Below are positions 477-27,051 of a DNA stretch of 30,278 nucleotides, piece by piece (within the stretch, counting starts at the first letter, position 1; each line of letters begins with the position of its first letter). Source of the DNA: a virus. Lineage: Duplodnaviria > Caudoviricetes. The translations under genes were made by a program, and so were the position numbers. The notes under the pieces are model-generated. The model worked only from the letters and a program-made list of their open reading frames with translations. It was not told where the DNA came from and made no database searches. The stretch is from IMG/VR virus record IMGVR_UViG_3300017548_000013, positions 1-30,278 of that record; one strand, 5' to 3'.

Positions 477-617
477 ATGAGGCGAAGCAACAGCGCGGCG
501 TGGTGCGTGGCGATTTCCTGCGTTGTGGCGTATATCTTGTTCGGCCTTGCTGCCGGGATCTATATCCCCCTTACTGAGGAAGACCTAGCGATGAGCCGCC
601 ATGAATACCTCGACTGA
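477..617 (+). CDS. 46-aa single-transmembrane peptide, candidate Iap-like inhibitor of the host O-antigen polymerase (absent from the ORF track)
   Basis: MRRSNSAAWCVAISCVVAYILFGLAAGIYIPLTEEDLAMSRHEYLD*: basic N-terminus, about 23 hydrophobic residues, acidic tail. Purine-rich RBS (AAGAAAGAGGGA) upstream; overlaps the wzy start by 17 nt. Function inferred from context. Confidence 0.6.
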   Translation: MRRSNSAAWCVAISCVVAYILFGLAAGIYIPLTEEDLAMSRHEYLD

Positions 618-2115
618 AGCGACCTCGTCGGAGAAATTTGGCCCGCGAGATTTGGCGGCATTCTCAGCTATCGTAGCTCTGGCGTTTGGCCTTCCAGCGA
701 CGTTTTTCCCAATTGCCAATTATGATGTCGAAACCGCGTCATTTGTGGGTTCAGCATATTTCGTAGCAGCGGCAGCCTTTATGTCCCTTTCTGCCGCCGC
801 TCTTCACCGGACGCTGATCCATCCCTATGTGCTCTTTGTAGGCACGTCTTGTTTGTTCATCGGTGGCCGCTTCTTCGCCTATCTATTCGGCGGCATCCAG
901 TCGACCTTTTATGACGCGAACTTCAAAGTACTAGACCTGACGGGGGCTGAGGCTTGGAATCTCGTAACCTTCGTTGTCCCGTGCATGCTCGGCCTTCACG
1001 CCGGTTACATGTGGTTCTGGGCGCAAAAACGCACCGATTCCACGGATAAGGCTGCGCCACTGCCCAGCAACTTCGAGAGGACGCTCGCCATCCCGAGTGC
1101 CATATTGCTGGTCATCTGTGCACCGATCGCGGGCTGGGGAGTGCTGCAGCAGTATCTCGCGTGCATGTCAGGCGGATATCTTGAGGTTTATCAGTCGTCC
1201 GCCGAATTTGCCTCCCGCAGTTCAAATCTCGCCCAGTACGGGCTTTTACTCTCGATGGGTCTAGCCTTCGCTTCGCGCAATCGAGTTCTGGAAATACTGA
1301 CGACCTTGTGTATGGCTGTCGTGAGTTTGGGGCTTTTGGTGGTGGGCATCCGATCCACCTTCCTTGCATTCGTCCTGCTGGCAACCTTCCTCGCTCACAA
1401 GCGGGTGCGACGGCTAAATGTCCTGACCGCACTAATCGTGCCAGTCGCCCTGGTTGTCTTCGCTCAAGGCGCTTCCGTTTTCAGTTGCCGCGCCGTGGTA
1501 GAGGATGAGCGCATCCTCAACCAACAGGTCATCCCCGAAGACGAACGGCAGGCAGAGTTTGTAGAGCGTCTTAGCGCAGGAGGAATCTTTGCCTTCATCC
1601 ACAACCAGGGAACGAGCCTGCTTTCGATCCATGTAGCAACCACGATCCCAGATTATCCGCTGCCTGCGCTGTTCCAGACCTTCTTCCCTGGCTTCGGAGT
1701 GATTGCCAAGCTTCTCGGCCATCCCCTTGAGCTAACCGACCTATACTACGGGCAGTACATGGCGAAGGAATGGATGCCCGACCGCTATGCGGTTGGAGAA
1801 GGGTTCGGGTGGTCGATATTTTCAGACTTGGTAGTCTGGTCTGGAAACAACCATTTCGTAGCCTTCTGGCTGGCAGCAGTGCTCGGAGCCGCCTTCGCCG
1901 TGCTGATCAGCGCCGCAGCTACAAGTGCTGTCTGGTTCGGGGCACTCGTGGTGATTATGCCGAAGTTGATGCTGCTTCCTCGTGCGGGGCTATATTCGAT
2001 ATTCCCCTATCTCATTGCCTTTATGGTAATCGTCTGCGGATGGTGGGTAGTTGTCCGGCTATACACCCGATGGCGAGGCCGAGGCGGAAGGGTTTCGGCC
2101 TCACAAAAGGCCTAG
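601..2115 (+). CDS. wzy: O-antigen polysaccharide polymerase, Wzy family (O-ag_pol_Wzy-like); phage moron
   Basis: 504-aa polytopic membrane protein with family-like motifs HPYVLF..LFIGGRFF, GGYLEVY, GIRS, FIHNQGTS and GEGFGWSIFSDL. Opposite strand to the phage genes and visibly more AT-rich. Confidence 0.8.
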   Translation: MNTSTEATSSEKFGPRDLAAFSAIVALAFGLPATFFPIANYDVETASFVGSAYFVAAAAFMSLSAAALHRTLIHPYVLFVGTSCLFIGGRFFAYLFGGIQSTFYDANFKVLDLTGAEAWNLVTFVVPCMLGLHAGYMWFWAQKRTDSTDKAAPLPSNFERTLAIPSAILLVICAPIAGWGVLQQYLACMSGGYLEVYQSSAEFASRSSNLAQYGLLLSMGLAFASRNRVLEILTTLCMAVVSLGLLVVGIRSTFLAFVLLATFLAHKRVRRLNVLTALIVPVALVVFAQGASVFSCRAVVEDERILNQQVIPEDERQAEFVERLSAGGIFAFIHNQGTSLLSIHVATTIPDYPLPALFQTFFPGFGVIAKLLGHPLELTDLYYGQYMAKEWMPDRYAVGEGFGWSIFSDLVVWSGNNHFVAFWLAAVLGAAFAVLISAAATSAVWFGALVVIMPKLMLLPRAGLYSIFPYLIAFMVIVCGWWVVVRLYTRWRGRGGRVSASQKA

Positions 2116-17964: not shown

Positions 17965-18124
17965 TGGTCGTCACTCCCCGGGAGAGCAGGACAGCCATCA
18001 CTCCCAGAGCCACGGCCGCTGCCAGAAGTGCGTGACCGACGCCGAAGAGAAGGAACACTCCGCCAACAAAGCACCCTGCCGACAGCAGGATGAGAACCAG
18101 CACGGCCAGGATGAGGACGGTCAT
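17957..18124 (-). CDS. Small two-TM membrane protein preceding the portal
   Basis: 55 aa from ATG 18124 (ATGA overlap with the GT gene), almost entirely hydrophobic. Confidence 0.65.
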   Translation of the reverse strand: MTVLILAVLVLILLSAGCFVGGVFLLFGVGHALLAAAVALGVMAVLLSRGVTTNG

Positions 18125-19041
18125 GTGCTCACCTTCTCGCTCCGGCCGCACCAGACGACCTCGCTAAACCCGCAGAGATCGGCGAGCCTGTCGGCCTCAT
18201 TGTCGTTCTGCGCTACAGCCGTCACCGGCGTCGGCCAATGGGCCGCCGCTTCCGGCGACGCGATCACCCCGTCGAACGCGCCGGTCTCCAGCGCGGCCTC
18301 TGCATCAGTCCATACATGGGGCCCATATCCAAGGATCAGCCCCCTACCCTGCGGCTCGCGCCGGTAGTGCTCACGCACCCACGGATCGTCGAGCAGGTTC
18401 CATGGCTTCGGATGGCCGGGGTGGAACATCAACCGAGTCTCGACTTCATGCCGGCGGCCCCACCAGGCCACACCATCGCTCTCGTCCCAGACGGCCTCGC
18501 CCGGCCCGAGGACATGGGAAATCCATGCCTGATCGGAGCCGGCGTAGCGTTGACCTGCGGCGATGGCCCTCTCGGGCGTGAACCGGTCGTAGACCTGCGG
18601 GCGAGCGCCTGCGGTCATCATGAGCATCGAACCGTTGTAGGGTCGCCTGTCCGGCGGCCGCCCAGGGCTCGCGTAGAGGACGATATCATCGTCGCGAGAG
18701 AACAGCGGGTCGAGGCTGCCGGCGATGACGCAATCCATGTCCATGGACACGAACCGCTCACCGAACATGTCTCCGGCATCGCGACGGAACATGGCTATCC
18801 GGCGCAGGCACTGCGGACGGCCGTCGGTCCAGGTCGGGATTCGCACGTCCTCGAAGTCGCGCGGCGGGGCGATGATTTCGATCGAGGGGTCGATGCCCTC
18901 AGGCATATCCGTGACGCAGGCTAGCCGGTGCGGCAGGGTAAGATGCCGTCGCACCATGTCGGCCCAGATGTTGACGTGCAGAGCCGTGTAAGTCGCGCGG
19001 CCATCGGGCTGCGCCCAGAGCCAGGTCAGCACCGTCAGCAT
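18121..19041 (-). CDS. Putative GT-A fold (GT8-like) glycosyltransferase with an extra C-terminal domain
   Basis: ACVTD, FVSMDMDCVI.GSLD (DxD), YNGSMLMM, SDQAWI and FHPGHPKPW in GT8-like order; C-terminal LILGYGP segment. Confidence 0.8.
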   Translation of the reverse strand: MLTVLTWLWAQPDGRATYTALHVNIWADMVRRHLTLPHRLACVTDMPEGIDPSIEIIAPPRDFEDVRIPTWTDGRPQCLRRIAMFRRDAGDMFGERFVSMDMDCVIAGSLDPLFSRDDDIVLYASPGRPPDRRPYNGSMLMMTAGARPQVYDRFTPERAIAAGQRYAGSDQAWISHVLGPGEAVWDESDGVAWWGRRHEVETRLMFHPGHPKPWNLLDDPWVREHYRREPQGRGLILGYGPHVWTDAEAALETGAFDGVIASPEAAAHWPTPVTAVAQNDNEADRLADLCGFSEVVWCGRSEKVST

Positions 19042-21725: not shown

Positions 21726-23486
21726 TCAGACGAAGAAGAGTTGCGGCTTGGGCGCTCTGTGGGCCACGGGATTGCGGCTCATGAGGGTGACGGCGTTGAA
21801 CATCGCCATCGCGGGGTCGATCTTGGCGTCGCCGGCCGTCTGCTTCGTGGCTCGGATGCCGGTGGCCGTGGGTTCGATCTTCAGGTTCGGCACGCACCAG
21901 CGCATCAGCGGCCCGCCGGCATGCTTGAGCAAGCCCGAGGCCAGCCGGCGCTCGGCGCCCTTGATGGACGACATCATCCAGCCTCCCTGAGGCGCCGCGA
22001 CGAGAAGCCCGGATTCCTGCGTGACGCCGATCTCATCGAGGGCATCTTCCATCTCGCCGAGCCCGGACGCGTCCACCGCCACTCCGCCGAGAAGGTTCAT
22101 ATTCTTGATCCGCTCGATGCGGTTGATGATCGACGCGACGTCGCCCAGCGGCTGGTCGAGAATGGTCAGTTCCTTGGCCTTGGCGATATCCTGCAGAATG
22201 GGCGCGATCTTCTTTCTGCGGCCCAATACGCCCCGATGGCACCAGGCGTGAGCCCAGGCCAACCAGCGCTTCATGCGGACGATCTTCCTTGTTCCGTCAT
22301 CGTCCTCGACTTCTACCTCGATCTCGCCAGGCTCGCGCCCAAGAACGGCGAAGCCGAACAAGTCATCGAGGCCGCCCCCATCGAGACCGATCGTCACCAC
22401 CTCACTACGCTGAAGGAGCGCGTCCAGTGCAGCCCAGTGACCGAGTCCAGCAAGAGCCTCGTCCTCGGCCGCTTCCCAGTGATCGGCGCCGGTCCAGCGG
22501 TTCGCCCGCAGATTGAGGCCGATCTCAACGTTGAGATGCTTGGCGAGGAATGTCTGGATGGTGTCACCGTCCTCATCCTCACCTGCCCGCACCTGGGTGA
22601 GCTTGCGCTCCAGATACTCCCGACGCACCGATTTACCGATGTTCGGGTTGGTGACGTAGAAGCAGTCTGGATCGAGGTATGCCTCGCTCTCGATCATCGC
22701 CTCTGGGTACTCGTAGATGACCGGCAGGAACCTCGGGTCATCCACCTCGCCGTCGCGGACCTTCCGCGCGTAGTCCAGCTTCTCCTTGAACACGCCAGCA
22801 GGCGGGGTGTCCGACTGCGTCGAAATGTAGATCACGAAGCCTTCCGGCCGTGAAATGAGCCCGCCCGTGGCCTCTTGGAGCATCGGCCCGGCTCCGGCCT
22901 TCTTGCCGAAGTGCCAGAGTTCATCGATCAGCACGAACGCCGCCTTCTTGCCGGCGGCCGTCGACGAGTCCGCCGAGATGACCTTGAGCGCAGCCTTGTT
23001 CAGCCGGTGCTCGATCTCCTTGACATTACGCTTGACGTGCAGCAGGTCCGAAAGCTCTGGATCCGCATCGACCATGGCCGCCGCCGGCTTGAACGCGTTG
23101 TCAGCCACCTCTCGGGTGGGGGCCAAAATGAGCAGCTCCTGCTCGCCGCGCCAGTTGCGGATCAGGGCCGTGACCATGATGCCGGCTACGATGGTCGACT
23201 TCCCGTTCTTCTTGCTGACCAGCAGGAAGAACTCTTCGATCAGCCGCTGGCCGGTCTCTGCATCGTAGGCACCGAAGACAGCCTTGACGAAGTCGAACAC
23301 GAACGGCTCGCACGCCTCGCCGAAGGTCGGTTGCCCGGCAACATCCACCATTCGAAGCGACTTGAAGACCGCCAGCGCCGCCTCCGCCTCATCTGGGAAG
23401 AGCGGATCGCATGGCACCAGAGACTGGCGCGCAACGATGCGTTCCCGCCAGTCCGGGCAGGCCGTCGTCCAGGTCGGCGCCATCAA
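21726..23486 (-). CDS. terL: Terminase large subunit
   Basis: Walker A VSKKNGKS, Walker B VLIDELW, ISTQ coupling motif, GLDGGGLDD and KIDPAMA nuclease motifs. Confidence 0.96.
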   Translation of the reverse strand: MMAPTWTTACPDWRERIVARQSLVPCDPLFPDEAEAALAVFKSLRMVDVAGQPTFGEACEPFVFDFVKAVFGAYDAETGQRLIEEFFLLVSKKNGKSTIVAGIMVTALIRNWRGEQELLILAPTREVADNAFKPAAAMVDADPELSDLLHVKRNVKEIEHRLNKAALKVISADSSTAAGKKAAFVLIDELWHFGKKAGAGPMLQEATGGLISRPEGFVIYISTQSDTPPAGVFKEKLDYARKVRDGEVDDPRFLPVIYEYPEAMIESEAYLDPDCFYVTNPNIGKSVRREYLERKLTQVRAGEDEDGDTIQTFLAKHLNVEIGLNLRANRWTGADHWEAAEDEALAGLGHWAALDALLQRSEVVTIGLDGGGLDDLFGFAVLGREPGEIEVEVEDDDGTRKIVRMKRWLAWAHAWCHRGVLGRRKKIAPILQDIAKAKELTILDQPLGDVASIINRIERIKNMNLLGGVAVDASGLGEMEDALDEIGVTQESGLLVAAPQGGWMMSSIKGAERRLASGLLKHAGGPLMRWCVPNLKIEPTATGIRATKQTAGDAKIDPAMAMFNAVTLMSRNPVAHRAPKPQLFFV

Positions 23487-23917
23487 GTGTTATTGACCGC
23501 CAGACGCGGGCCGGCGGGCGGCGCGAACTTGCCCCCGACGTTTTCGGCCGCCTGCTGCTGCTGAACCTTCTTGCCTACGGCGGCCGTCTTTGGCTCGCGC
23601 TGCTTCACGGACTCAGCCGCAGCGGCCACACGGCCCATCTCCTCGAGCTTCTTCTGCGCCGACACGTTGCCGCCGCGCGCGGAGCTGAACAGCATGCCGA
23701 TCACTTCCTTGCGGCGCTGCGCATGACCATCGGCGAGCTCGTCCGGGAAATGCTTCCGCAGGGTGTCAGGGTCGATGCCCAGCGCTCGCGCAATCGTGTT
23801 GTCCGATTCCCCGCAGAACTTCATTTCCTCGACCGTGCGGCGCTGCTCGATTGTCGGGCGAAACGCCGGGCGGCCGGGGCTCGCAGCCCTGCCCTTGCCT
23901 GATCGTTTTTCGGTCAT
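23483..23917 (-). CDS. terS: Terminase small subunit
   Basis: GRPAFRPT, HTH IARALGIDPDTLRKHF, GNVSAQK; ATGA overlap with terL. Confidence 0.88.
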   Translation of the reverse strand: MTEKRSGKGRAASPGRPAFRPTIEQRRTVEEMKFCGESDNTIARALGIDPDTLRKHFPDELADGHAQRRKEVIGMLFSSARGGNVSAQKKLEEMGRVAAAAESVKQREPKTAAVGKKVQQQQAAENVGGKFAPPAGPRLAVNNT

Positions 23918-23939
23918 CGTGCACTTTCAGCCGAAATTT

Positions 23940-24030
23940 CGGTCACGGAAGAAAAAACGTGCGAATGAGGGCGCCGCGGGTCCGGCGGAGACGGCCTTTC
24001 GGCCTTCCGAATACCCCCCCCCGGTGGGTG
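23940..24030 (-). other. Probable cos / packaging-initiation region
   Basis: Non-coding gap just upstream of terS with a 9-G run (24014-24022, minus strand) and a T tract, as is usual at cos regions of HK97-like phages. The exact cut site cannot be determined. Confidence 0.5.
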
Positions 24031-24031
24031 G

Positions 24032-24352
24032 TCAGCGACGCCCGGAACCCATTCCGGATGGCATATTGGTCGGGGCTGACCCGCTTGCCGCAGGTGGCCC
24101 ACGGTGCCCACCTATGATCATTGGTGCCGGTGGATCAGGGCGCACTGGCACGGACTGGAACGGATCGGGGTTGATGCCGCCTTTGCGCACCATCCCCTCT
24201 CGAAGAGGCAGAGCACGGCGAGGCGGTAGCGGTGGGGTCGGCACACGGCTGTACCCACCTGCAAGCGCCATCGCGATCACGACTGGCACCGCTCCCGCAC
24301 AAGCACCCGCTATCGCAGCGGTTATCAGCAGGCGAAGCAATTCAGGTGTCAT
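24032..24352 (-). CDS. Hypothetical membrane-anchored proline-rich protein
   Basis: 106 aa, hydrophobic N-terminus then Pro-rich tail; GGAGGAG RBS. Confidence 0.6.
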   Translation of the reverse strand: MTPELLRLLITAAIAGACAGAVPVVIAMALAGGYSRVPTPPLPPRRALPLREGMVRKGGINPDPFQSVPVRPDPPAPMIIGGHRGPPAASGSAPTNMPSGMGSGRR

Positions 24353-24355
24353 GCT

Positions 24356-24487
24356 TTACGCTCCTCCGGCCAATGCCCAAACGGACAACACGGTGATCCA
24401 TGCGACCATGACGATGATCGCCCATCCAGCATCGTGGATGCGAAAGCCTGCTTCAGGCGGAAGCGGGTCGAGTGGCGGCATGGACAT
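24356..24487 (-). CDS. 43-aa single-TM peptide (absent from the ORF track)
   Basis: MSMPPLDPLPPEAGFRIHDAGWAIIVMVAWITVLSVWALAGGA*; fills the gap between neighbours. Confidence 0.5.
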   Translation of the reverse strand: MSMPPLDPLPPEAGFRIHDAGWAIIVMVAWITVLSVWALAGGA

Positions 24488-24689
24488 CGAACAATTCCGG
24501 GTGCAGGGCACGAGCGGATCGCTCAAGCCACGGCATGCGCCACACCAGCACCAGATTGCCGATGCGTAGTCGCATGGCGTTGGCCAGCCGGTTAGCCTGC
24601 AGCCAGCGGCGGCCGGGGAAGATGGGCTGTGCCCATTCCACCGAGATCAGTCCAGCCTTGGGAAGGCGCCTGCGCTGTGCCCGCGTCAT
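24453..24689 (-). CDS. Hypothetical basic protein (78 aa)
   Basis: Start re-called to ATG 24689, overlapping the upstream stop (ATGA). Confidence 0.55.
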   Translation of the reverse strand: MTRAQRRRLPKAGLISVEWAQPIFPGRRWLQANRLANAMRLRIGNLVLVWRMPWLERSARALHPELFDVHAATRPASA

Positions 24690-25450
24690 CTTGCTCTCCG
24701 CTCTTGTGATTGCGCGTCGCTGTCGTGCCATTCCTTGGACACGGCAGGTTCGGCGCGCATGTGCTCGAAGGTGGCGATGAACTCGCTCAGCCTCTCAGGC
24801 AGCATGCGTTTGATGAATGGGATCATGCCGCCGCGCATGCGGTTGCATGGGTTACAGGCAGCGACCAAGTTCTCGGGCCGGTTGTCTGCCTTCTGCTCGT
24901 TCAGGTGATCGACCACCAGATCAGGCCAGTCGTGGACTGTGCCGCACCAGTGGCACGGATGCGGGCCAGGGCCATACTTCTCGTAAGCAACTGCCCTATG
25001 TTCGCCTAGCCATCCGTTCTGTTGAGCCAGCGGGTGCTCGACATCCTTAATGATGCGATAGCCGCCATGGACCATCAGCTCTACGCGCGGCGTGAGGTCG
25101 AAGCTGCCGACCCTGCGCACTCGCTTGTAGTGCTTTTCGCAGAGGCCGTGCCCAACACGGGTGGCAGGCTTTCCGCACTTGTGCACCTGACAAACGCCCG
25201 CTCGGCGCTTTGCCTCCGCTTTGTAGCAGGTATTGCACTGCTTTGATGAGAGGGCGCGCACATGGCGGATGCACCCTTCGGTTGAACAGACCGGCCATTC
25301 TGATTTTGGTCGGACGCGAGCCCGCTTGTATGCCTCTCGGCATGCGTCAGAGCAGTGGCTCCGGTCGTTACCCTTGCCTACAGCGTAGCTGAATGTCTGG
25401 TTGCACTGCTTGCAAATGCGCTCACGCTGGCGCACTTCTGCCTTAGCCAT
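24686..25450 (-). CDS. Free-standing HNH homing endonuclease with Cys-rich N-terminal modules
   Basis: CKQC..CSDAC, two Cys/His repeats (..GLCEKHYKR), GYR..HP..EHR, CHWC..LVVDHLNEQKADNRPENLVAACNPCN. Confidence 0.88.
   Translation of the reverse strand: MAKAEVRQRERICKQCNQTFSYAVGKGNDRSHCSDACREAYKRARVRPKSEWPVCSTEGCIRHVRALSSKQCNTCYKAEAKRRAGVCQVHKCGKPATRVGHGLCEKHYKRVRRVGSFDLTPRVELMVHGGYRIIKDVEHPLAQQNGWLGEHRAVAYEKYGPGPHPCHWCGTVHDWPDLVVDHLNEQKADNRPENLVAACNPCNRMRGGMIPFIKRMLPERLSEFIATFEHMRAEPAVSKEWHDSDAQSQERRAR
24701..24742 (-). repeat. Diverged duplicate of the 3' end of the packaging HNH gene (other copy 25565-25606)
   Basis: VSKEWHDSDAQSQE versus VSKAYHDSEAQRLE: 9/14 aa and 26/42 nt identical by manual alignment. 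Confidence 0.8.
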
Positions 25451-25523
25451 ATTCGATCCTCACCGATCGTCTTGGTCAGGCCCGGCTCGGTGTTCCACCA
25501 CCTTGTCGGGCCGTTTGATTCTA
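25451..25523 (-). promoter_or_regulatory. Putative promoter and structured leader of the homing endonuclease
   Basis: -10-like TAGAAT (25523-25518); hairpin GGCCCG/CGGGCC with inner GGTG/CACC (25479-25512); hairpin CGATC/GATCG (25454-25469) covering the GAGGA RBS. Confidence 0.55.
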
Positions 25524-25549
25524 GACGATCAAGCGAAGAAAGCCAGCAC

Positions 25550-25897
25550 TCAGCTTCCGCTTTTCTCAAGCCGCTGGGCTTCGGAGTCGTGGTAGGCCTT
25601 CGAAACGCTTTCGAGGTTGTTGATGTCCCAGAACAGGTGTTCCTGCCCTCGGTGCGGCACCTTGTGGTGCACCACCGGGCTATCCGGCGCCGGGGCCTTG
25701 CCGACGAGCAGGATGCCCGTGTGCTGGCAGGTGTAGAGGTCGCGCTCCAACACCAACTGCCGAAGATCCTGCCACCGCTTGGACTTGTACCAGCGGCGAA
25801 CCGTGGCATCGGGGCTGTAACGGGTGTCCCGTATCTCGCGGGTGGACTTCAGCCTTGGCGCCATGGGCGACAGGCGGGGTTTGAGAACCTTGATCAT
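25550..25897 (-). CDS. Terminase-associated HNH endonuclease (HK97 gp74-like)
   Basis: WYKSKRWQDLRQLVLERDLYTCQ...VVHHKVPHRG..LFWDINNLESVSKAYHDS; start re-called to 25897 (115 aa, ATGA overlap). Confidence 0.9.
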   Translation of the reverse strand: MIKVLKPRLSPMAPRLKSTREIRDTRYSPDATVRRWYKSKRWQDLRQLVLERDLYTCQHTGILLVGKAPAPDSPVVHHKVPHRGQEHLFWDINNLESVSKAYHDSEAQRLEKSGS

Positions 25898-26040
25898 ACG
25901 TCCGGCGCGAGCAGCTTCATGACGATGATCGCCAGCGCGCCGGTCAATGCGAGCATGAGCGAGAACTTCGAGATGCCATGAACAAGGAACGGCGCGGTCG
26001 CAGCGGCACTGGCCAGCGATGCGGTCTCGCCGATGCTCAT
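25894..26040 (-). CDS. 48-aa hydrophobic peptide (absent from the ORF track)
   Basis: MSIGETASLASAAATAPFLVHGISKFSLMLALTGALAIIVMKLLAPDV*; ATGA overlaps at both ends. Confidence 0.6.
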   Translation of the reverse strand: MSIGETASLASAAATAPFLVHGISKFSLMLALTGALAIIVMKLLAPDV

Positions 26041-26405
26041 GATATCCAGTTCCTTCCCAGCCATGCCCGGCCAGCATCCGTAATCACGAGTGCTTCACCG
26101 CCATGGTGGGCGCGACCCGCATGCAGCAGACCAGCAAACACGAATGCCTGGGCCTCTCGAATGCTCATCGTGTGGCCACAGCAGAGCACGAAGTGATAGT
26201 TCACCCGCTTGTGCGGCGTCAGGTCGCTGCTGCTGAAATCGTACGTGAACGTCAGGCTGGCGTCCCACTCAACACCCCACGGCAGCCAGCCAGTGGCGAG
26301 CGTGGACATGATGGTGAGGCGCCGACCGGACTTCTTGATTGGCGGCACATCGTGGAGAGGTTCGAAGATGATCAGGTCCGCCATTTCGAGCGGGTGATCG
26401 TGCAT
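26037..26405 (-). CDS. Hypothetical protein, first gene of the putative late operon
   Basis: 122 aa, GAGG RBS, stop overlaps the next ATG. Confidence 0.6.
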   Translation of the reverse strand: MHDHPLEMADLIIFEPLHDVPPIKKSGRRLTIMSTLATGWLPWGVEWDASLTFTYDFSSSDLTPHKRVNYHFVLCCGHTMSIREAQAFVFAGLLHAGRAHHGGEALVITDAGRAWLGRNWIS

Positions 26406-26535
26406 GTGGGCCTCGATGTGGGGAGTTCCGCGGACAGTTCGTCACGCTATCTGGAATGACGCCGAATATGCCGTTTCGTGACTCATCGCTCAATGAGGTG
26501 AGAAGAGTCCGGTGATTTCCGGGCCTTTCGGCCCA

Positions 26536-27051
26536 TCACCACGGCTCCAGCCCTGCCCTGTTAAGCCGATCCGCGATCATCCCGGCCGCTCTGGTGACGT
26601 GCCGTACGAACGTGGACCGCACCCACAGCTTGCGCCGGCACAAGTCCTCCAGGTTCTCCCCGCGCAGCTCGGCGTGAAGCCATGCCACAAGCTTGTCGCG
26701 ATACTCCGGCACCGACAGCAGCGGGCCAGCCAGCCATGATGCATGGTCCCGGCCATCATCATCCCGCCACCCCAGCACCACCATCTCCATGCGGGCCATT
26801 TCCCGGCGCGTGGCGGTGCGGTGAAGCTTGGGCACGTCCGCTGGCCAGTCACCGGGTGCGTTGTGGAACTCCGGCCACATCACCTTCATGCCTGCGGGTC
26901 CATAGCGACCACCCACACGGCCGAGAACGCGATAGGCGTCCAGAAGTGCCGCCTTGACCATTGCGGGCGTCCAGAGGCTCGCCTGCGGCTTGGCGTGAAC
27001 CAAGACATCCCGGTCGGTTTCCACCAATACCTTGCGCGCCCTTGCCTTCAC
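26536..27051 (-). CDS. DUF6362-like protein, probable late-transcription regulator
   Basis: WTPAMVKAALLDAYRVL...WPEF and a C-terminal helix-turn-helix-like segment; occupies the Q/activator position between replication and packaging genes. Confidence 0.6.
   Translation of the reverse strand: MKARARKVLVETDRDVLVHAKPQASLWTPAMVKAALLDAYRVLGRVGGRYGPAGMKVMWPEFHNAPGDWPADVPKLHRTATRREMARMEMVVLGWRDDDGRDHASWLAGPLLSVPEYRDKLVAWLHAELRGENLEDLCRRKLWVRSTFVRHVTRAAGMIADRLNRAGLEPW

Follow-up and report, generated by a model that had tools for sequence, protein, structure and literature searches.

We detected an 864-bp cassette (24746–25609) on the minus strand of a 30,278-nt virus record, about 51% complete and hereafter called the window, meaning the whole stretch of DNA analyzed. 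At a probability of roughly 78%, we read this cassette as an intron-free homing element: its HNH endonuclease is predicted to attack gp74-like packaging HNH genes just before the codon for their last histidine, and the cassette would carry with it the gene end of another allele. This reading builds on the anatomy of the cassette, the existence of empty alleles, the position of the endonuclease behind gp74-like genes, the repeated occurrence of orphan gene tails, and a tract of identity between two phages, all of which we observed.

The capsid–protease–portal–terminase module of the window is encoded on the minus strand, as are all features of the locus: in order, a gp74-like HNH gene (25550–25897), a 99-nt leader (25451–25549), the gene for a 254-aa endonuclease (24686–25450), several small cargo ORFs, a G-run motif (24014–24022), terS (23483–23917), and terL. 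The first cargo ORF, of 78 aa (24453–24689), starts with an ATG that overlaps the stop codon of the displaced gene end and has 51%-identical homologues in two other viral contigs (L170 and L171); these lie in other genomic contexts, and we reached no empty allele with the same gene order through them. The G-run sits just 5' of terS, has a similar segment in locus L001, and, by analogy with the layout of HK97, would mark the cos region. The host of the phage is probably an alphaproteobacterium because the named relatives of the gp74-like protein come from Devosia. A sigma-70 scan of positions 23900–26500 returned no promoter. Elsewhere in the window, we noted a 504-aa hydrophobic membrane-protein ORF (601–2115, plus strand) on the strand opposite to the tail genes, which gives the impression of possibly being a moron such as an O-antigen polymerase-like gene, and a 306-aa ORF between the capsid and portal genes (18121–19041, minus strand) that looks glycosyltransferase-like by eye.

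The invaded gene is a small HNH gene upstream of terS and terL that encodes 115 aa, matches PHROGs 589, 144, 119, and 2323, and is homologous to the packaging HNH protein of GVE2 (PDB 5h0m, E = 5e-12). Residues H78, N94, and H103 occupy invariant columns, and H103 aligns with the final histidine of the CxxxH motif in the GVE2 protein. Comparison of gene tails, including that of locus L018, revealed that the gene is an intact hybrid of a resident 5' part and an incoming 3' end, the latter comprising codons 97–115 plus the stop codon and forming the first 60 bp of the cassette (25550–25609). The cassette splits the gene between codons 96 and 97, six codons before the last catalytic histidine. 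Behind the hybrid gene and the free-standing zinc-ribbon HNH core of the endonuclease (residues 1–235, 24746–25450) lies the displaced original 3' end (24686–24745), identified by comparison with locus L091 and a contig of run X8, which forms endonuclease residues 236–254 and the stop codon.

The original prediction had reported both genes, which we found at the stated positions, and a resemblance between their ends, which is real: nine residues are shared, five of them with different codons, and 26 of 42 nt are identical over 14 codons (27 of 45 over 15). The last 60 nt of the two genes align at an offset of 864, where 47 of 91 nt are identical, versus 17–34 at 19 other offsets, and the orphan tail of the window scores 37.8 on a gp74-tail matrix, against a maximum of 11.2 among 245 shuffles. 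Deleting the segment first proposed as the insert (24743–25606) does leave one 115-aa ORF whose stop overlaps the ATG of the 78-aa ORF, and the duplicated segment does take in the last histidine of the HNH motif, H103 in the alignment with 5h0m. Because natural alleles and the joining contig of run X8 place the junction one codon further 5', we refined the insert to 24746–25609, again 864 bp.

Empty alleles, which an insertion of this kind had been predicted to leave in related phages, were found. One of them, L091, is identical to the old end at 48 of 51 nt and to the new end at 29 of 51. Among the 11 relatives listed, the old end was clearly the better match in 10 (40–48 versus 29–34 of 51 nt), with L097 at 39 versus 34, so that the displaced end is the native one and the upstream end the foreign one. 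A 23-nt motif of the old end lay inside a full-length gp74 ORF in all 16 viral contigs that hold it. A 224-nt contig of run X8 follows positions 25634–25614, passes through four other letters, and continues at 24745–24711, a net skip of 864, before matching 24207–24366 with 3 differences. We regard this contig as a relative of the empty allele rather than its direct ancestor because the short side of the joint is only 21 nt, it was found at 82% likeness, and the 78-aa ORF is absent from it. None of 84 loci selected by gp74 similarity carried the endonuclease family within the flanks available; with X8 and L091, they place occupied and empty alleles in related genomes. Contigs of runs X9 and X13 gave only short pieces at the cassette, and an RNA-library contig (X14) was identical over 25087–25285 but, as a contig, is no sign of transcription.

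The interpretation first offered for this duplication is partly supported. It had called the new end a recoded replacement: the intron-free insertion that supplies a new end and displaces the old one stood, and the recoding did not. The best match of the new end to any of 74 natural tails was 32 of 45 nt, and natural alleles have 14 of its 15 codons at the corresponding position. We compared 1,606 pairs of natural tails that share 8–10 residues: 34% of the shared codons differed on average, 11% of pairs differed at five or more of nine shared codons, and 34% were equally low in nucleotide identity. Since the divergence of the new end lies within this natural allelic variation, we rejected deliberate recoding, and the new end is better read as the allele of another phage. 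Several of its positions hold codons that are rare among natural alleles (e.g., 1/74 versus 56/74 at His+2), which would fit cleavage resistance without showing it.

A comparison with locus L018 points to recent movement. This locus and the window agree without a single mismatch along 1,004 nt (25620–24617), a tract that covers the new end, the leader, the endonuclease, and the old end and whose flanks carry 38 mismatches in 265 nt on the 5' side and 8 in 200 nt on the 3' side. The 5' part of gp74 is 14% diverged and the flanks overall 2–14%; even at 2% divergence, an identical run of this length has a probability of about 2e-9. The tract begins 11 nt from the cassette junction, as expected if the break lies there. 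Such a tract between otherwise diverged phages fits recent homing with putative co-conversion of flanking sequence, in this one pair of assembled contigs; two further loci, L017 and L019, match the window exactly and do not count as independent.

The endonuclease matches Pfam HNH_3 at 26.7 bits (cut-off 24.8) and has an intact HNH catalytic motif (D181-H182, N194, N203), zinc-ribbon cysteines (C166, C169, C199, C202), and Cys-rich N-terminal modules. Among 32 homologues, H182, N194, N203, C166, C199, and C202 were invariant and C169 was conserved at 90% or more. A structure model (pLDDT 90.6) returned no Foldseek match at E<=0.001; the best PDB rows were the Gme HNH nickase and I-HmuI, weak fold matches that suggest a nick rather than a double-strand break. 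The gene appears to lie in neither an intron nor an intein: an Rfam search of the region showed no intron, and the gene has its own start and its own leader.

That leader shares 89% identity with the one preceding an unrelated HNH gene in L001. It contains a two-stem hairpin (25479–25512), then a TRACC-like motif, and lastly a small hairpin that covers the ribosome-binding site (25454–25469), a layout we also saw in L001, L008–L014, L006, L016, L020, L027, L058, L060, L064–L066, L079, and L081. In a hand-picked set (n = 19), the two-stem hairpin showed compensatory changes in 22 cells with both sides changed (0/500 shuffles), and no Rfam family matched it. The same leader precedes at least three other endonuclease-like classes, as judged from translations, along with two apparently non-nuclease ORFs, and it may be a portable phage leader RNA. 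A TAGAAT hexamer that it shares with L001 is a candidate promoter element only.

A family search with the endonuclease alignment, together with L006 and the window locus, yielded 66 usable loci, 50 of them non-redundant and all chosen by the endonuclease alone; 11 weak loci (L036–L042, L086–L089), 16 duplicates, and L028, which runs into a contig end, were dropped before counting. GTDB genomes held only 2 distant loci. A gp74-like gene lay directly 5' of the endonuclease in 45 of the 50 loci, 43 by HMM (a few with low scores) and two (L080 and L082) by PHROG. PHROG scans of six of the seven loci without an HMM assignment placed a gp74-like gene upstream in two, downstream in three, and another small HNH gene upstream in one, so a small HNH gene is still adjacent in the other 5 of the 50 (four by PHROG; L050 is a near-copy of L025). 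In L022, L025, L050, and L051, the endonuclease is upstream rather than downstream of the gp74-like gene. The only relatives among named phages were distant ones in Escherichia phage Fraca, Thalassomonas phage BA3, and Vibrio phage 1.029.O, none directly behind a gp74-like gene or, by eye, followed by an orphan tail; because these sit elsewhere, the link to gp74 does not hold for all distant homologues. The homologue in 1.029.O (L190:846-2082) lies directly behind ninG, another nuclease gene, a hint that relatives of the endonuclease may target other nuclease genes.

We detected an orphan gp74 tail at or behind the end of the endonuclease in 9 of 49 loci, the window included, and none in the other 40. 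Scoring relied on an 18-column gp74-tail matrix in place of a tail HMM that, swollen to 230 columns, recovered just 3 of the 49. The same procedure gave 0/49 on the reverse strand, 0/245 in shuffles, and 1/84 among gp74-selected loci (Fisher p = 5e-4). Read from the alignments, tail similarity starts about 0–6 codons before the last histidine in all nine, so that the fragments begin at a common position, and they stem from different gp74 subfamilies. On the endonuclease tree, the tails need 5 changes, at least 3 of them forced by well-supported branches, and tail loci were no more or less clustered than shuffled labels (242/500). The sequence of gp74, endonuclease, and tail recurs in L018, P0001, and L006.

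The old gene end had also been proposed as a captured C-terminus and stop codon for the endonuclease. Both are present in the window, but the capture looks like an incidental by-product because the nine tails split into five in-frame and four out-of-frame cases (p = 0.14 against an expectation of one third), which leaves selection for an in-frame fusion unsupported. In line with the earlier expectation that homologues would lack the tail, most do: P0001 has the sole clear one among 72 protein homologues, a tail whose junction residues agree with those of the window and whose distal part differs. Five further C-termini scored 15–19 on the tail matrix, a range reached by 2 of 720 shuffles (>=15), and may be decayed tails; we left them uncounted.

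Whether a tail is present was related to the distance to the G-run. In tail-less loci, this motif followed within 80 nt of the endonuclease in 27 of 36, four more having been left out of the distance count as their available sequence held no G-run. The motif was at least 200 nt away in 7 of 9 tail loci versus 7 of 36 tail-less ones (p = 0.002, or 0.01 with near-copies collapsed), a distance to which the orphan tail itself adds about 60 nt. The simplest reading of this difference is that homology on both sides allows clean replacement, and that cargo genes lead to a one-sided event that strands the old tail.

We suggest that the endonuclease nicks or cuts an uninvaded gp74-like gene just before the codon of the last catalytic histidine, a predicted site that we place from the junctions only. 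The invaded gene would stay whole, as the cassette brings the gene end of another allele, and this incoming end would resist cleavage as a divergent natural allele rather than through special recoding; splicing would be unnecessary. In its usual home between gp74 and the cos-proximal motif, the cassette would have two homologous flanks and could home without leaving a duplication. A recipient with unrelated cargo genes behind gp74 would offer homologous recombination on the left side only, and in the founding event an illegitimate right join near the end of the endonuclease would strand the old tail, in or out of frame. The displaced tail then likely serves as a right-hand homology arm, as proposed for the yeast WHO elements, through which the cassette may continue homing, as it may have done between the window and L018.

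An alternative that we consider unlikely is a generic mosaic join at a hot spot, in which a gp74 3' end and the gene downstream of it moved together through two crossovers, the first homologous and the other illegitimate; the endonuclease would then be a passenger or target cos or terS, and the tail would be a scar. The conserved histidine motif could itself supply the microhomology for such a join, and the region 5' of the terminase has been called a hot spot for HEG-like nucleases (PMC10055350). In L097 (2845–3045), a 66-aa ORF without an HNH match (phrog_13916, labelled DNA ligase) lies behind gp74 in a 197-bp insert that has its own duplicated gp74 tail, read in frame, and of which L091 is the empty version; tail duplication can thus arise without this endonuclease in cis, although cutting in trans could also account for it. 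Several nuclease classes occupy the slot behind gp74, with unrelated HNH endonucleases directly behind gp74-like genes and under the same leader in L001 (3439–4161; no orphan tail seen), L009, and L011, which makes the slot a general hot spot. A mosaic join alone is harder to reconcile with the excess of orphan tails at endonuclease loci over gp74-selected loci, with the clustering of junctions within about 6 codons in gp74 subfamilies that differ widely, with an identity tract that starts so close to the junction, and with the lack of similarity between old and new tails just 5' of the junction. The hot-spot explanation nevertheless keeps a minor share of the probability because of L097, the unrelated occupants of the slot, and the three distant homologues that are not behind gp74.

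Far less probable is that the endonuclease is a domesticated packaging accessory, which would join gp74 or the terminase as an additional HNH or zinc-ribbon protein and keep its tail for a function. It nearly always adjoins the packaging HNH gene, and zinc-ribbon proteins beside cos-adjacent HNH genes have been described (PMC3592412), but it is absent from all 84 gp74-selected relatives, most homologues lack the tail, four of the nine tails are out of frame, and unrelated nucleases fill the same slot. A self-splicing intron with the downstream tail as a true second exon is more improbable still, even though the insert resembles group I introns in breaking a gene at a conserved codon and in coding for an HNH protein. 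An Rfam search of 23400–27000 found no intron at E<=5 and no group I ribozyme core, only one chance snoRNA match, and the 864 bp are accounted for in full, with 60 nt going to the tail, 99 nt to the leader, and 705 nt to the ORF, which leaves no room for a ribozyme; moreover, the upstream gp74-like gene is already complete, and in relatives the downstream tails have decayed or lie out of frame. Chance resemblance or an assembly artefact has a negligible probability: the repeat spans just 60 nt at about 60% identity, yet its matrix score far exceeds every shuffle, L091 agrees with the old end almost throughout, and independent contigs (L018, P0001, L006) share the layout.

Beyond the homing element itself, we see roughly even chances that the endonuclease represents an undescribed, widespread HNH family specialized on the active-site end of a packaging HNH gene, toggling between classical homing and WHO-like replacement, swapping metal-binding C-termini between phage lineages, and expressed from a portable hairpin leader. 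The classical mode would operate with gp74 on the left and the cos region on the right, and the WHO-like mode would follow when cargo genes remove the right-hand homology. The locus offers a bacteriophage counterpart of the yeast WHO elements that already has the pieces for a direct test: the cut site is predicted to within about 20 nt, nature provides candidates for a sensitive and a resistant allele, and a tract records a recent transfer. The locus also suggests a rule, that intronless homing leaves a duplicated gene end when one side lacks homology. These findings bear on whether HNH genes next to cos serve packaging or are selfish, as here a packaging-type HNH gene adjoins a selfish-looking one that likely preys on it, and chimeric gp74 genes at such loci affect phylogenies and annotation.

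The gp74, GVE2, and HrdP nucleases are, like the invaded gene, small HNH proteins encoded near terS and terL, and the Skunavirus counterpart HrdP is essential for infective virions (PMC3592412, PMC12967558). They are counterparts of the host gene and not of the element, and the subfamily of the window differs from them in having lost three of the four usual zinc-ligand cysteines, with only C57 invariant. Barth et al. (2023) treated gp74-type genes as possible HEG relatives and reported remnants in HEG islands; the portions of that paper available to us describe neither targeting of gp74 genes nor replacement of their ends by a second endonuclease family (PMC10055350). The free-standing Seg and Mob endonucleases of T4 spread by intronless homing and resemble our element in the absence of an intron, the cut or nick in a neighboring conserved gene, and the co-conversion of flanks (PMC2988022, PMC2790892). 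One-sided illegitimate repair of a microhomology type has been described for T4 intron homing (PMC2988022). The phage insertions described in these sources are instead intergenic or split a gene into two polypeptides, as in Aeh1 nrdA and T4 gene 60, and the word stem "duplicat" is absent from the main texts of both (PMC2988022, PMC2790892). In the literature outside subscription journals and supplements (including that of PMC10055350), we found no phage description of 3'-end replacement.

The layout itself is known from yeast and from fungal mitochondria, and our element works like both and belongs to neither protein family. Mobile ORFs of fungal mitochondria make hybrid genes in Allomyces macrogynus (atp6) and Glomus (atp6, atp9, cox2, nad3), with the same order of foreign C-terminus, endonuclease ORF, and native C-terminus, and in both settings the native copy is nearer to close relatives than the inserted one (91% versus 64% in mitochondria, 94% versus 57% here; PMC3630166, PMC4019555). 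The mitochondrial enzymes are of the LAGLIDADG or GIY-YIG type, whereas the target in the phage is a gene that itself encodes an HNH nuclease, and the endonuclease has the old tail fused to it. Yeast WHO elements replace the 3' end of FBA1 and cut allele-specifically, and the displaced fragment has been proposed as a recombination arm (Coughlan et al. 2020, PMC7282813). Our element shares with them a non-splicing endonuclease gene behind its target, a replacement 3' end, an old end pushed behind it, fragments that begin at about one position, and the proposed use of the fragment as a recombination arm. WHO proteins are intein-like zinc-finger fusions of the eukaryotic nucleus for which allele-specific cleavage has been demonstrated, and their genes form tandem clusters and come with fragments of ~400 bp (PMC7282813), whereas the phage protein matched only HNH families, its fragment measures 60 nt, no clusters were seen, most members have no fragment, and cleavage is only predicted. 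What the phage system adds is a packaging HNH gene as the target, likely preyed on by another HNH family, as well as numerous independent events and a testable rule on when a duplication arises.
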